DNA of 64,000 nucleotides from Welwitschia mirabilis (Eukaryota): NCBI GenBank assembly GCA_051453625.1, contig JBOZIK010000001.1:30392454-30456453 (forward strand). Direction: 5' to 3'. Shown in pieces: positions 55,331-64,000 of this stretch; the stretch's first letter is position 1; the number at the start of each line of letters is the position of its first letter. Both the position numbers and the translations under genes were made by a program. The notes beneath the pieces were generated by a model that worked only from the letters and a program-made list of their open reading frames with translations, searched no databases and was not told where the DNA came from.

Positions 55331-58300
55331 ATGGAGGAATCGTCAACTGCAAGATCACCTCTCTTCAATGGTATCAATTATGCCTAGTAAAATATGAGGA
55401 TGTACGTGTACTTCTAGTTACTTGAGTTTGATGTGTGGCAGACTATTCTAAATGATTACATAAATTCTAAAATAAAAGTGAATAACTTTCTAGGTATTAA
55501 AATCCACAAAATCAAGCTAAGGTTGAAAATGAAGTCAAGGCAATAAGGACAAATATATGTTTAACTCAAAGGCAAAGAATGCTTTATTCTCTACACACTA
55601 AGCTAAATACTTTAACCATATTACCAAATGCGAAACTAGGAACTATGAAATGTATTGGAGTTAACATATGAAAAAGATTTAGGCATGAAGCAATTCAAAC
55701 TACTTGTTTAAAGTAATTAATTTAAGAACCTAAGGATGAACAAAGGAGTATGAATTCATCAGTAATTTGTGAAGAATAAATAATGTGGTGAATTTTATTC
55801 AAGGAATTGATGGATACCTATTCAAATCAAAGGTAATACAAAAAGTGAGATATTTTACTTCATAATACAAGATAAAAAGCCATTCTCATAAAATAATTAA
55901 GTAACTTCAATGTTATGAGGTTTAAGGAGCTTCAAAGTGCATTAACAACATATCAAATAAGCCTCATAAAAGATGGAGTAGTTAACAAAAATTCAATCAG
56001 TTTAAAGTTAAGTGCTAAAATATCAAGAAAATAAAAGAGTAAGAAGGAATTTAAGATAGATGAAGATGACTATGATAAAAATTATGAACTAGATCTAATT
56101 ACAAAGAAGGTTGAGAGAGTTTTATCATGAAAAAACAAGAGGAAAAAGAAATCATCACAATCAAGCAGAACACGTTTAAGAGGTAAGTTTAAAGGTAGAC
56201 CATTTTTTTATTCTTCTAAGAATGACATTACAAAGTTAGATTATTAGATTTATGGTAGACAACAATATTTGGCCTTAGAATGTCCTAATGTTAACCTTTT
56301 TAAGGAGAAATGAAAAAGAAATACTTCAAGAAAAAGAAGTTCTTCTTTACTAAATGAAATAATGATAAAGAAATAAGCAAAGAATAAGTGACTAAAGATG
56401 ATGCTAAGGAGTCTCACCATATTTTCTTGGCCATAGCACATGAAAATTGAAAAAATAAGGAGCAACCCTTATTTGATTATTAAGTGGTGATGAAATTAAA
56501 TTACCTCTATATGAAGGTAAGCTTTAATGTCCAAGAATTTTGAAAGTACACAAATTTTATGTCAAAATGAATAAGATACTCCATCATCATGATTTGGCTC
56601 CTAAGAAAGAAAAAGAAACTAAATCTAAGTGAGAACGCAGCCTTAGAGATTAAGGTTGGTAAAGTAATAAGTGAGATCAAGTGTTTTAAATATTACTAAA
56701 TGTTGTGAGGAAGATTAACTAACAATTTAATCATAGTGAAAGAATTATGAAAATCATGCTTGGAGAAGGAAGAAGTAGACTTAATAGAAGTGGACTTGAA
56801 TCACATCAAGCATCAACTGGTAGTTCTAATAGAAATTATTCAAAGTGGAACTACATGCCTAGATTGTAACATTTAGCGAGAACAAGAAATTTCATGTGCT
56901 ATTATTGTAAACAAAAAGGAAATTTTTAACATTTTTGTTCTTTGAGATTTAGATATTATGGTGCTACTAAGTTTGACTAAAAGAACAAGATTTTGGGTAA
57001 AACTCCTATACAAGTAAGAACCAAGTGGAGGGTGGTAAAGACAAGATAAAATATCATGCTTTTTCAATTTTTACCTCGTGCAATAAAGAAACACACATAA
57101 TACATGGACAGTAGGTGCTTTTGCCACATGATAGAAGACAAATTGCATTTTAAATCCATGGTTGAGAAAAATAAGTGTGTGATGATACTTGAAGATAATA
57201 CAGAGTTCTCAATTAGATGCATTAGTACTATAGGAGAAGGTTACCTCCCAAAGGCAAAGGATGTATTTTACGCTAAAGTTTTAAAACGTATTTACTTAAC
57301 ATTTGTCAGTTATGTGATTCAAAGTTTGAAGATACTTTTACCAAGAATGTCTATATCATTTAAGAATGCAATTCCAATAAAGTTTTACTTATTAGGTAAA
57401 GAAAATTAAATGTTTATATTAACTATTTATTTGATATTTCTAATAAGAGTCTCAAGTATCTACTTAGTACCACAGGTGATGTAAGGATATGACATAGAAA
57501 TCTTGGTCATGCGAACATGGATATCATGAAGACACTTGCATCAAAAAAATTTGTATGAGGCATTTCTAACATTAATAAATTCAGTAATTACTTATGTGAA
57601 GCTTGTTAAAATGGTAAATAAACAAGGTAAATCTTTGATGAAAAAATTCTATTTTACTTCTAATACCTTCAGATATATTGCATTTGGATATTATAAGACC
57701 CTCCAGGTCGAAAGTATTGGGAGAAGAGATGTTATCTTATAATAGATAGTGATGTTTTATGTTAAACATGGGTAGCCACCCTTGCACACAAGGATGAGAT
57801 ACTTCACTATTTTTCTAAGTTCTATATTAGCTTGTAAGATGAGAAGGGTTACTCTATTAAAGTACTCCATAGCAACAATGAAGGGAAATTCAAAATTCAT
57901 TGTCTAAGGCCTTTTTTGTTACATATTAGAATCAACATAAGTCCTTAGCTCTAAGTACATCACATTAGAATGAAGTTGTGGAATGCAAGAATGATCAATT
58001 GAGATGATAGGAATCATGGCTAGTTGAATGAGATGGTTCAAACCATGATCCATGATCAAAAGGTACCGTATCAGTTTTTGGGGAGAAGTCATCAAAATCA
58101 CGCACTATGTGTTAAGTTAAATAGTGGTATAAAAAATTCACAAAAAATAAATATTTAAGAATTATCACATGATAAGAAACCCCTAGTAAGATACTTTCAT
58201 GTATTTAGCTCCAGATATTACATTCTAAACGAAAATGATTACTTAAGGAAGTCTGATTCTAAGGCTAATGAAAGCTATTGTTGTGGTTATTCTATGGTTA

Positions 58301-59898
58301 TCAAGGCCTATAAAGGTTTTATCAAAAAGGACTCTATCCATAGGAGAAACCGTTAATATTAGATAAATGATGCAATTCTCAAAACATTTGCTTGTATAAT
58401 GGTGAAGCCCATATAAAAAGGTGACAATGAAGAGGAAGAACCTAAATCATCACAACCATTAATGATGATGAGACTCAATAAGGACCACTCCATAAGTGAC
58501 ATAATTAAAATTCCCTATAATGATGTGAATACCAAGAGAGCTACCAATGAACTATGTGCTTATAATGCTTTATCTCTAACAAGTGAAACTAAAGAAATTC
58601 AAAGAAGCTAAAGATGATGAAAATGGATTTGAGCCATGCAGAAAGAACTTAACCAATATGAGATATCTTATATATGGAAATTAGTTCCTAAGCTAGTAGA
58701 CAAATCTATTCTTAGTACTAAATAGATGCTTATAAATAAGACAATGAAAATAGTATAGTCATATAGAACAAGGCTATCTTAGTAACCAAGAACATCATCA
58801 ACATGAGGGAATTGATTTTAAAGAGACCTTTGCACTAGTTTCTCTAATGGAGTGAATTCATATGCTCATATAATTTTATTGCTATAAGGGTTTTACCTTA
58901 TAACAGATGAATGTCAAGAGTGCATTCCTAAATGGAGTAATTTAAGAAGAGGTATAGGCCAAATAGCTTAAGCGTTTTATGGATCTGCATCATTCTAATT
59001 GTGTTTACACATTGAACAATTATATGATCTAAAGCAAGCCTTTGAAGCATGGTATAAGCATTTGTCAGAATATATCTTAGATAATGTATTTAAGATAGGA
59101 GAAATAGATGTAACCCTCTTCACAAAATGATTTGATAGTGATTTAATGGTTATTCAGATTTATGTAGATGATATAATTTTTAGTGCCGCTAATAAATCTT
59201 TATGTAAGGAATTTTCTAGTCTTATGTAGAAGGAGTTTGAGATGAACATAATGGGTAAAATGAGAAACATTTTAAGGCTATAAGTGCACTAAACAAAATA
59301 AGGAACATTTGTGTTACCAATCAAGTGCATCAAGAACTTATTTAAGAGGTACAAGATTTAAGATGTTAAGCTAAAGGAGATACCAATGGCATTAGGCACT
59401 AAGTTAAACAAGAAGCCTCAAGGTAGAAAGGTCGATTAGAAGATGTATCAAGATTAGAGAGGTTACAAAGATGATAGAAGAAGAATAAGCAGCTGTTATT
59501 ACTTTATAGAGATGTGTCTAGTTTCTTAGAGTAGTAAGAAGCAAAAATCCATAGGTTTGTCAATTATAGAAGCTATGAACCTTATTATAGAAAGGTAATT
59601 TAGATAATTACTATGAATGAGATAGATATTAGAAGTCTTTATTTTTGATTTGAATAGAATTCCCATGCTATGTAATAACAAGAGTGCCATCAACATCTTA
59701 ACAAATACCATCCAACACTCAAGAACTATACACATTGAGATCTAATATCACTTCTTAAGAAAGCATGTATGAAGTGGTATAATAAAGTTGAAATACTTGC
59801 AAATAAAGGACCAACTAACAAATATATTCATCAAATCTTAGATGAAGCTATTTAACAAATTATATAGAGACATGAGTATTAGACTTATTCCAATTAGG
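55331..59898 (+). pseudogene. Degenerate SIRE-type copia gag-pol
   Basis: MEESSTARSPLFNGINY start; protease MDSRCFCHM; *HRNLGHANM; integrase; RT IQIYVDDIIF (~59150); RNase H QHSRTIHIEI. Copia domain order. Confidence 0.92.
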
Positions 59899-59999
59899 TA
59901 AGTGAAGGTAAATTTCTCTTATCTAACTTAAGTTTAACAGAGTTAGAATTATTACATATTATTTCATAGATAAAAATTTCTTAAAATTAATAGTATACA

Positions 60000-62057
60000 G
60001 TGGAGCACTTCTATAATGCACTGCAAGCCTAATGCTCAGATTGTTAATTCTTTTGTTGAATACTTCCAAAAATTGTTTACAAAGAAGCTGATGGTTCTCA
60101 ACAGTGTCCTAGTTGGCCCTCCTATTACTAAATAATAATAATGTTATTTGAGCCAAAGATTCACAGAAGATGAAATTCGAAACACCATCAACTCTATGAA
60201 AAAGAACAAGATGTTGGATCTGATGGCTTTACTATAGAGTTCTATCAAACTTTTGGAGATATTATCAAAGTGGATGTTTGTGATGTGATCCAAGAAACAT
60301 TCAAGAAAGGTATCTTTTACAAACCTTTAAATGACACTCTTATCACCCTAATTTCCAAAACAGAAGATGCAAAAAGTCCTCACCATTGCAAGGCAATCAG
60401 TCTTTGTAATATTTTCTATAAGGTTTGCACTAAGATTATTGTAGACAAGTTTAAAGTGCTACTCCCAGATATGGTAACCCTGTCTCAATTCAGTTTTATT
60501 TCAAGAAGAGTTATCTATAATCACATAATCCTCACCAATGAAATACTTTATCTACATCATAGAAGAAATAAACCTGCAATGTGCCTCAAGCTTAATATAG
60601 CTAAAGTGTTTGATAAAGTCTAGTGGGAAACAGTAAACTCTGTGTTAGAGGAGTGTGGTGTTCCCACACCTCTCAGGCGTCTAATTTACTTTGGTATCTC
60701 AATGCCAACCTTCTATGTTATAGTCAATGGAGAGAGATACAACTACTTTCAGGGGAACAGTGGCCTACGTTAAGGTTATTTCCTTTCTCCAAGTTTTTGG
60801 TTATGGTGATGGACTCCTTAGCCAGACTCTTCATTCAGAATTAGAATCAAAATTCTTCCATTGAGCTAGCTCCTTCATAGCCCACCCTTCAATTTGCAAA
60901 TGATACTCTTCTATCCCTAGAATCAAGCCTTCTTATGGCAAGACATACTCGCAATCTATTAAATAAGTTTCATGATTTCCCAGGTCTTACAATAAATTGG
61001 CACAAATCAAAACTCTTCCTTATCAACACTCCTTAAGCAAGGAAGACGGCTATCTCTCAAGTTTTTCAGTGCTCACAAGCCATGTTTCTTAATGCCTATT
61101 TTGGTCTTCCTTTTGATTTAGATCATATTGCTGATAACGTTTGGCCTTCTTTAGTGAGAAAAATTGCAACTCGTTTAACTAGATGGGAAAACAAAGTTTT
61201 ATCAAATGCAGGAAAAGTTCTTGTTGTCAAATCTCGCATACTAAGTATGACTATTTATCTCATTAATTGCTTTTCCATATCTAATAGGTATTCTAGCTTG
61301 ATAGATAACATTATCTGAGATTTCATTTGGTCGAGTGGCAAGTTCCACAAGAGGCCTCATCTTATAAACTTCGAGCAAATCATCATGCTAAAGAAAGCAA
61401 GTGGTCTTCTTATTAGAAAAACTATGGATATAAGCAAATGTATTTTCGCTAAGCACTACTATAGATTTCTATCTGACAACAACATTCTCTGGGTTAAATT
61501 CTTTAAAGAAGATTATGATAATAAAGAAAGGCATTCTAATTTTCAGAAGCACATGGTCCATTCTAGCAAAGAGGTTTGGCCACAAGTTTTTGAAAATCAT
61601 GCTCTTCCTATCCAAAATGGCAAAGCAAGCATCTCAGTAATATATCATAATTTATTTGATCTTGATCATAGATGGAAGAAATTTTGGAAGTTAAATATCC
61701 TAGATAAAATTAAAATATTTTAGTGGTATATGTTGAAAGTTTATATTCCCACAACAGATAAGCTTATTCAAAGAAACTTAAGAGTTGATCAAGATTGTCC
61801 GATGTGTCATGAAAATAATGAGTCTGAAAATCATCTTTTCATTCAATGTTCTACTAGAAAAGATCTCTGAAAAGGGCCAAATATATCTTCTCCTTCTCAC
61901 ATTAGCTTGGACACCTTTTATTTTTCAAGAAAAATGTCTCCATGACTGTTGGTGCTTAGCTCTTATGGAAACATAGATGCAACATTATTTTTCGGTAGGA
62001 AAAACTATCCATCTTAAAGTTGAAATTCAAAATCATTAGACAGATTGAAGAACTAAA
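60000..62057 (+). pseudogene. LINE ORF2 (RT and C-terminal zinc finger), endonuclease missing
   Basis: NDTLITLISK, AISLCNIFYKV, LKLNIAKVFDKV, LQFANDTLL, LSNAGKVLVVKS, CPMCHENNESENHLFIQC. Confidence 0.93.
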
Positions 62058-62217
62058 TCAAATTTAGGTCTATAAAAAACATGGCAACCCAAAACCTACA
62101 AACAAAATCGCGCCCAATTTACAAGAGAACGCGTAGCTAAGAGCATTAGAACTACATGAGAGAGGAGTGTTTGAACCATGTCCAAGCAGCTGATGTGACA
62201 TCAATGCATTAGAAGAT

Positions 62218-63234
62218 ATGGGAAAGGCTATAAGAATTAAACCTACTCAGCATGATGTGTTGTTGCATCATGAGAAAACTTAGGAGGCCTTTTATGCAGT
62301 AGGATGGGAGAGTTGCATGCTTATCCTTAGAGGACATGATCTTAATCTCTTCAAGTAATTTTTTAGAAACTAGAATGGCGGATCTACTCGGATAGGTAAC
62401 AATACCATTTTTATTGATATTCTTCCATCAATGATGCCATTTGCAGATGTCCTTAAGGAATTAAGTTAAAAAGGGGAGTCCCCCAGGCTTCCATTGTTTT
62501 TCACTTTGAAAGAATTGATTGGTAAAACCCTTAGAAAGAGAGGTGGAAGCTACAGAATAAAGGATTTTCTAAGGCCATTTGATTCTTGGGCTGCCTTGAT
62601 CATGAAATACTTCACTTTAAAGGGCCACTTNNNNNNNNNNNNNNNNNNNNNNNNNNNNNNNNNNNNNNNNNNNNNNNNNNNNNNNNNNNNNNNNNNNNNN
62701 NNNNNNNNNNNNNNNNNNNNNNNNNNNNNNNNNNNNNNNNNNNNNNNNNNNNNTAAAGGGTTGATTTGATTGTTATATCAAAGGAAAATGCATAACGATG
62801 CAGGCATCTTAGCTTGGTAAGATATCCCAAGAGAACCTGTGCAAAAGCTGCTACTATGGAATCCACTAAAGTATACAAAAAGTGATGAAGAGTGCAGCCT
62901 CCTTGCGCCTTCAAGACACACTGACAACGTGCCAAATATAGAACAGACAGAGCAATAGAAATATGAAAAAGAAGCTGTAAAAGAGGATGAATAGTAAGAA
63001 GAAGAAAACATTGAGGAGGAAAGTAAACCTTTGGCTCCTACCCCTATTGCCCAAATCCCCTTGTTCAACTATACCTCAAATGAATACAGTTTTGTTGTAA
63101 ATCCCTTAGGGTATGCTAGACTTAAACCTCTTTCTGATTGGAAGTTAGAACCTAAGTTGACAAAATTAGATGCTGATGTATGGGAGTTTCAATACCAGAG
63201 AGAATTTTATTATGCTTGGAAATCTAGCTCTTAA
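62218..63234 (+). pseudogene. Extra ~338-codon ORF inside the LINE insertion, resembling retrotransposon accessory proteins
   Basis: One frame from ATG 62218 to TAA 63234 with point-nonsense stops and no frameshift in the visible sequence (one N gap): MGKAIRIKP..AVGWESCMLILRGHD..RPFDSWAALIMKYFTLKGH..KGLI*LLY, then an acidic tract. Confidence 0.7.
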
Positions 63235-63310
63235 GCTTTATTGTAAATCTTTTTCTTTTTTGAGTTAATATAATCTATTTACTATTTCTCAAAGAAAATT
63301 TCTTAAAATT

Positions 63311-64000
63311 TATGCACATTATTATTTTTGTGAATTTTATTAAGTTATTAAGTTTTCAATTTAATATGTATTTGGTTAATAAAAGATGTCTATTATAGCT
63401 TTCAGATGTCCTGTATTAGAAAATGCTTTTTAAGTTTTTAGTATAGACATCTTCTATGTGAAATACATATATTGTGTTTTAAAGTTTTTTTCAATCACCT
63501 ATCAACCTAGACGTCTATAATAAAAAAGAAAATGTCTACTATGCATCAAAATACATGTCTTCTATATCAAGAATGTCTACAGTGTAGGCATGAATAAAAT
63601 AAAAAGCAAAGCAAAAATTGAGGGTTTAGACTTCTATAAAGACATGAATCATCTTAAATCTTTCATATTTTATTTTTAATCCTTTCCACAATAGAAATAG
63701 CCATAAATCGCCAAAATAATTTTAGACTCACTCATTGATGGAGTCATAAGTAGCCACAAGCGAAAAAATGGTGAGGACAAGTAGAGAGAAAAGGGCCAAA
63801 ATAGAGTAAAAATGCAAGGGAAAAGGCTCAAATGACCCAAAAAAAAATGGAAAAGAGATAGTGTCCAAATCTAATCATTAAATCTCCCATAAAGAAGAAT
63901 CTAATAGTTGAAGGAAGGAATACAAACTCTTATTTATTTTAAATAATGTCAGATAGTGTTTTACAACTTGAAAATCACTTAAAACCATAACAGAGAGAAC
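63311..64000 (+). mobile_element. Resumed SIRE 3' region and start of a probable env-like ORF
   Basis: The same gatgtcta/tagacatc/tagacgtcta motifs as in the LTR; MVRTSREKRAK begins at 63768. Confidence 0.6.

Follow-up and report, generated by a model that had tools for sequence, protein, structure and literature searches.

A decayed L1-type LINE copy in Welwitschia mirabilis carries a kilobase-sized, probably family-wide module behind ORF2

A stretch of 64,000 nucleotides from Welwitschia mirabilis (contig JBOZIK010000001.1 of assembly GCA_051453625.1, forward-strand positions 30,392,454 to 30,456,453; here called the window and numbered from its first letter) contains near its right end a long interspersed nuclear element (LINE) of the L1 type. 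The element consists of the remnant of its second open reading frame (ORF2), a spacer, a decayed frame on the same strand and a tail, and it lies behind the pol region of a decayed Ty1/copia element. As an insertion the locus is ordinary: a single LINE copy, and a dead one. According to current descriptions, plant LINEs have two ORFs and a short 3' untranslated region (UTR); here about 1.24 kb follow ORF2. In this study, we show that this 1.24-kb tail module recurs in hundreds of other copies, apparently family-wide, and is not a one-off chimera. On balance we consider it probable that the LINE family, or a large subfamily of it, regularly carries the module as its 3' part.

The LINE part is recognised by its reverse transcriptase (RT) and zinc-binding domains. 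In the frame of 59991, Pfam matches RVT_1 over 60390-60800 (36.3 bits at a cut-off of 29.6, E 6.2e-09), and in the frame of 59990 it matches zf-RVT over 61664-61861 (55.9-56.8 bits, cut-off 27.5). The two domains sit in two different frames; over 564 codons, the true frames of ORF2 are interrupted by eight stops and shifted at least once. The zf-RVT frame has its last stop at 62054-62056, in agreement with an earlier reading of the window made from its letters only (the sequence-only reading), which had placed the end of ORF2 at about 62057. In the three frames of 59989-63294 there is no Pfam match to an APE-type endonuclease or to ORF1, and the copy starts downstream of their place. Since it begins inside ORF2, the copy is 5'-truncated, and the absence of endonuclease and ORF1 therefore says nothing about the family. 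RNase H (RVT_3) gave no Pfam match behind the zinc domain. RT, zf-RVT, a poly(A) 3' end, a target-site duplication (TSD) and 5'-truncated copies, the hallmarks of L1-type LINEs, are all found, and 59989-62056 is a 5'-truncated remnant of an L1-type ORF2.

The insertion is bracketed by the 16-mer AAAATTTCTTAAAATT, which stands at 59973-59988 and again, letter for letter, at 63295-63310. Allowing up to one mismatch, AAAATTTCTTAAAATT has two matches in the window against 0.17 expected, and one of 100 shuffles gave two or more. The exact 16-bp TSD around 59989-63294 that the sequence-only reading had described is thus confirmed, with both copies found and no further match at up to one mismatch. 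The terminal A4 of the element (63295-63298) doubles as the start of the right copy, and the insertion site TA/AAAA fits the preference of the L1 endonuclease. A repeat search over 59500-63800 gave 19 direct families, of which none pairs the 5' flank with 62060-62230 and none pairs 62060-62230 with the 3' flank. Because the 16-mer flanks the whole of 59989-63294 and there is no second repeat pair, the element entered in one event and not in two. Nested insertions are common in repeat-rich genomes, and the composite might be read as two separate insertions, one placed at the end of the other, with the 16-mer belonging to one of them or being a chance repeat. The exact fit of the 16-mer to the ends of the composite, at 0.17 matches expected, makes such a history very improbable, as does the lack of a second direct repeat pair; with a single TSD pair around the composite we rejected it. 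Neither blastn nor tblastn found a second copy of the element in the 64-kb window. The features of the locus are collected in Table 1.

Table 1. Features of the LINE insertion and of its host element in window coordinates
Feature	Position	Strand	Basis
Host: decayed Ty1/copia pol	57424-59388	+	Pfam on read-through frames
gag_pre-integrs	57424-57618	+	Pfam
SH3_retrovirus	58168-58326	+	Pfam
RVT_2	58784-59388	+	Pfam
TSD, left copy	59973-59988		exact 16-mer, match count, direct-repeat listing
L1-type ORF2 remnant, 5'-truncated, decayed	59989-62056	+	Pfam, stop counts, read depth
Spacer	62057-62217	+	base composition, stops, read depth
Decayed sense frame (extra ORF)	62218-63234	+	stop counts; no known domain
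Assembly gap, 123 N, inside the extra frame	62631-62753		conserved sequence here in other copies
3' tail	63235-63298	+	family-wide 3' end at 63298; poly(A) after it in other copies
TSD, right copy	63295-63310		exact 16-mer, match count, direct-repeat listing

Information on other copies came from public sequencing runs, in which 13 of 18 listed rows hold part of 61500-62630, under two organism labels. Four of the 18 runs were matched to 59500-63700 at a likeness of at least 80%, three of them as contigs (X1, X3, X7) and one as raw reads of the same species (X14), for which depths are summed over both directions. Individual records are listed for 24 of 36,069 pieces and 24 of 6,690 loose-end positions. 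In X14, the depth is 3-5 left of 59923, about 48 over 59923-60063 and about 400 by 60205; it reaches 380-490 over 61615-62037, dips to 159 and then 67 over 62038-62319 (12 reads at 62139) and returns to 227, 281, 203, 106, 189 and 298 in the bins of 62320-63306, the N bin left aside. At 63298-63306 it drops from about 300 to less than 1, and right of 63307 it is 0.3-0.8. The climb from 59923 towards the 3' side, from about 20 to about 200 reads per strand, fits copies shortened at their 5' ends. The depth over 62320-63306 is thus 100-500 times that of the host flanks and about half to three quarters that of ORF2. Moreover, the loose ends behind 63298, in 52 records of X1, 49 of X7 and 82 of X14, begin with A runs and then disagree with one another (agreement 0.44-0.49). 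A 3' end shared at 63298 and followed by unlike flanks implies many independent insertions. The AT-rich, LINE-style tail about 60 nt after the frame and its 3' end are as the sequence-only reading had it; of the poly(A), this copy keeps just A4.

High copy number and an own shared end of 62320-63298 do not fit a unique transduced flank. The sequence-only reading had offered two options, an integral third ORF or a template-switch/3'-transduction chimera. A one-off chimera with unique sequence is rejected by the shared end at 63298, the poly(A) and the unlike flanks of the other copies; a family-wide module is favoured, which supports the options of that reading in part. The same depths bear on an origin of 62080-63294 from the host, for example from an env-like region of a SIRE element, with the LINE ending near 62070; the sequence-only reading had named this as a possible refutation while judging the ORF to be probably not the host's. 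SIRE elements have an additional ORF behind pol, and the insertion does lie in just that place. Yet the flanks have depths of 0.3-5 against 100-300 over 62320-63306, the segment being 100-500 times deeper than both of them; elsewhere poly(A) and unlike sequence follow at 63298, and the 16-mer lies beyond the segment. A host origin, contradicted by read depth, is hardly credible.

Further loose ends lie within the module. Those at 62320, 62514, 62630 and 62756 agree among copies (0.76-0.86), for example in 193 reads of X14 behind 62630 (agreement 0.82) and 101 reads before 62756 (0.81), and inspection by eye shows them to be colinear with the window (before 62320, for instance, 19 letters out of 30 match). 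Agreeing, colinear loose ends indicate that the module continues upstream and that the depth steps arise by clipping at mutations of this copy. The four positions accordingly mark sites where this copy is mutated or, at the N run, unassembled. As a side observation, record 8 of X1 and record 24 of X7 extend from 63264 and 63269, respectively, to 63700, covering LINE tail, TSD and host flank with one differing letter each. Runs of both organism labels thus contain this very insertion; either it is shared by two taxa, or the labels stand for nearly the same plant.

The host is of the Ty1/copia type, with the pol domains gag_pre-integrs, SH3_retrovirus and RVT_2 in this order on the + strand. Its pol reading extends to about 59880, and the LINE inserted about 100 bp 3' of its end. 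The raw-read depth of the host flanks is just 1-5 in X14, and we therefore regard the host element as low-copy. A bump in depth of about 39 at 59641-59781, the end of the host pol, against 3-5 beside it, probably reflects conservation of this stretch in copia elements generally. The sequence-only reading had called the host a SIRE element, apparently with an env-like ORF of its own at 63768. The copia pol domains are present, but the SIRE and env label is unsupported: the ATG at 63768 opens 13 codons followed by TAA, and 63311-64000 contains no + strand stop-to-stop frame of at least 60 amino acids, though the window stops at 64000 and a decayed or distal ORF is possible.

Whether the module is the regular continuation of ORF2 depends on the junction between them. 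We infer that in most copies ORF2 is followed directly by the module. Position 62139 in the spacer is covered by at least eight, four and eight contigs of X1, X3 and X7, and one X7 contig spans 61773 to 62146. The alternative is a chimera formed in one retrotransposition from a LINE source copy and a separate, abundant, non-autonomous poly(A) retroposon that lay just downstream of it in the same orientation and was itself mobilised by LINE enzymes; the module would then be unrelated to the LINE family as such. The chimera would have arisen either by read-through to the polyadenylation site of the neighbour (3' transduction) or by a template switch of the RT from the retroposon to the LINE RNA. 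We regard such a chimera as unlikely but conceivable, and one TSD around both parts fits it equally well.

Several observations at the junction weigh against a regular continuation and speak for the chimera. Among the listed pieces, no contig or read spans from ORF2 (at or before 62040) to 62320 or beyond. Records 5 and 6 of X1 and 22 and 23 of X7 lose their fit at 62063, 62102, 62146 and 62063, respectively, and 111-227 unlike letters follow. Just 18 nt 3' of the ORF2 stop there is an A6 (62074-62079) within 37 A-rich nucleotides (22 of them A by hand count) directly behind ORF2. The sequence-only reading had seen no poly(A) tract between ORF2 and the extra ORF, which is nearly correct, this A6 being all there is. 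A GC-richer stretch follows the A-rich start of the spacer, and each of the three sense frames has 3-4 stops per 52-53 codons. The spacer also keeps four CpG in 160 nt (62110-62135), an observed/expected ratio of 0.65 against 0.14-0.23 in LINE, frame and host, although these are small numbers. An A-rich start and a low-depth, CpG-retaining rest resemble an old LINE tail followed by unique flank, the pattern that 3' transduction would leave. Finally, the module has only 0.3-0.75 of the depth of the 3' half of ORF2, where an integral end is expected to be equal or higher; this would be explicable if the module is less conserved or if ORF2 draws reads from sister families.

Other observations tell against the chimera. 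Depth dips as deep as that of the spacer occur inside undisputed ORF2 (75 and 67 in the bins of 60628-60909, with a depth of 11 at 60794), so that the spacer dip is no proof of a break. Contigs of three runs share the spacer. The only two joints that link the ORF2 end to the start of the frame (62079 to 62210, in one contig each of X1 and X3) cut both ways: they speak against the chimera, but their short sides of just 27 and 21 letters make them weak, which counts against the regular continuation. The listed loose-end places include no discrete end of the LINE near 62070, in a listing that a cluster of about 80 reads could have escaped. That ORF2 and module reach depths of the same order would be a coincidence under the chimera. 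The chimera would also leave the LINE with a 3' UTR of about 17 nt, against 189 bp in a typical plant L1, Celine of poplar (PMC11288735). A regular 3' part of the family, or of a large subfamily, thus remains the reading that we think probable on balance.

Within the module, the frame 62218-63234 comprises 338 codons and a stop. It is on the same strand as ORF2, has about the length given by the sequence-only reading and contains stops, as stated there, but it crosses a run of 123 N that the reading did not mention. The window is a gap-rich draft scaffold with a G+C content of 28.7%; it has 13 N runs (within 3482-62753, 42 to 840 bases each, 3,018 N in total), one of them inside this frame. 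The gap makes 42 of the 338 codons unreadable and leaves 296, and as the phase across it is arbitrary, the absence of a frameshift is not checkable. Nine internal stops in 296 codons correspond to 3.0 per 100, compared with 1.4 per 100 (8 of 564) in ORF2 (Fisher p 0.12) and 6-11 per 100 in the off-frames. In 3000 dinucleotide shuffles the best sense frame had 16.5 +/- 2.5 stops, and 17 of the 3000 reached nine or fewer. If both strands are allowed, 583 of 3000 shuffles do so and the depletion is not significant; since the hypothesis concerns the same strand, we count it as moderate evidence for a former ORF.

Copies differ within this frame. Out of 56 raw reads from other copies, 29 lack one base at 62513, which is also absent in 10, 4 and 8 contigs of the three runs. 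The family splits into two length variants at this position, and the variant would shift the frame, a further point against coding. Length also differs in the acidic, glutamate-rich part: over 62846-63079 many contigs skip 93 to 227 bases relative to the window (9 of 15 listed joints). AlphaFold2 without an alignment was uninformative (mean predicted local distance difference test score, pLDDT, 39.3). Taken by themselves, the stop statistics support coding moderately, and nothing else does; whether the frame was once protein-coding is, in our estimate, about evenly balanced.

Homology searches, in which the frame was read with X at stops, likewise lent a coding module no help. Pfam recognised no family in six frames of 62058-63294, apart from two antisense matches at chance level (E 0.15 and 0.22), and Rfam gave no match in the region behind ORF2. 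None of 395 candidates among proteins of near length was homologous to the extra frame, none of 36 pattern matches in viral contigs was confirmed, and none of 549 in metagenome contigs. A HMMER scan of 1.84 billion representatives yielded one match (E 9e-4), a bacterial inverse-autotransporter/invasin of 2004 amino acids that matched through five near-identical repeats and was judged spurious. As a control, the pieces of ORF2 with Pfam domains were searched in the same way and also found nothing (0 of 3,994 candidates and 0 of 61). This plant family therefore escapes the collections, and their silence on the extra frame is not evidence of novelty; the label of an orphan is not justified.

One TSD pair around a repeat that ends in poly(A) at 63298 indicates that one RNA with ORF2, spacer, module and tail was inserted here. 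We propose that a single event of target-primed reverse transcription put a 3.3-kb, 5'-truncated L1-type copy into a low-copy Ty1/copia element and duplicated 12-16 bp of the target. The copied RNA would have comprised the end of ORF2, a spacer of about 160 nt, a module of about 1 kb with its sense frame, a tail of 60 nt and poly(A). However it was acquired, the module may now supply the 3' end of the family at which reverse transcription starts. Later decay of the copy, mainly through C>T and G>A substitutions, would have led to its stops and frameshifts. If the frame did code, its translation would require either reinitiation or internal entry, the situation known for ORF2 of bicistronic LINEs.

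Related arrangements are known from other elements. In mammalian L1, 3' transduction or template switching places a LINE and downstream sequence within one TSD pair, ending at the downstream poly(A) site. The segment there is usually unique flank, whereas here it occurs in hundreds of copies with a shared 3' end. HeT-A and TART of Drosophila are telomere-specific and have 3' UTRs of kilobase size that are regarded as non-coding. The element described here resembles them in that a kilobase region behind the last ORF belongs to the element, with no relation in sequence or host. A full-text literature search turned up no plant LINE in which a further ORF follows ORF2; key papers on plant LINEs lie outside its scope, and this is not proof of absence. 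Celine has two ORFs, a 3' UTR of 189 bp, an A12 tail and TSDs; our element shares with it the order of RT and zinc-binding domain, the poly(A) end, the TSD, 5' truncation and high copy number, and differs in the roughly 1.24 kb behind ORF2 with a decayed frame of 338 codons without known domain (PMC11288735). A survey of L1 elements across eukaryotes names, in the portion at hand, primate ORF0 and reverse ORFs as the only extra ORFs (PMC5203782). Like ORF0, the frame here comes in addition to the ORF1 and ORF2 of an L1 element; ORF0 has 71 amino acids and is antisense in the 5' UTR (PMC5203782), whereas the present frame lies in sense orientation behind ORF2 and has five times that length.

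The most far-reaching interpretation is that an abundant plant L1-type family is tricistronic, with an integral third gene of about 340 codons that has an acidic, length-variable middle and no relative in the libraries searched, was kept by selection and was translated from the LINE RNA while hundreds or thousands of copies amplified in a very large genome. We regard this as doubtful. If it were true, LINEs would gain an accessory function through a third, orphan gene, and one would have to ask by what means such a third cistron is translated. Even without coding, a 1.2-kb, family-wide 3' module illustrates how the end at which reverse transcription starts can be exchanged or lengthened in a LINE lineage. 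For repeat annotation in very large plant genomes, it implies that such modules may be filed as separate "unknown" repeats.

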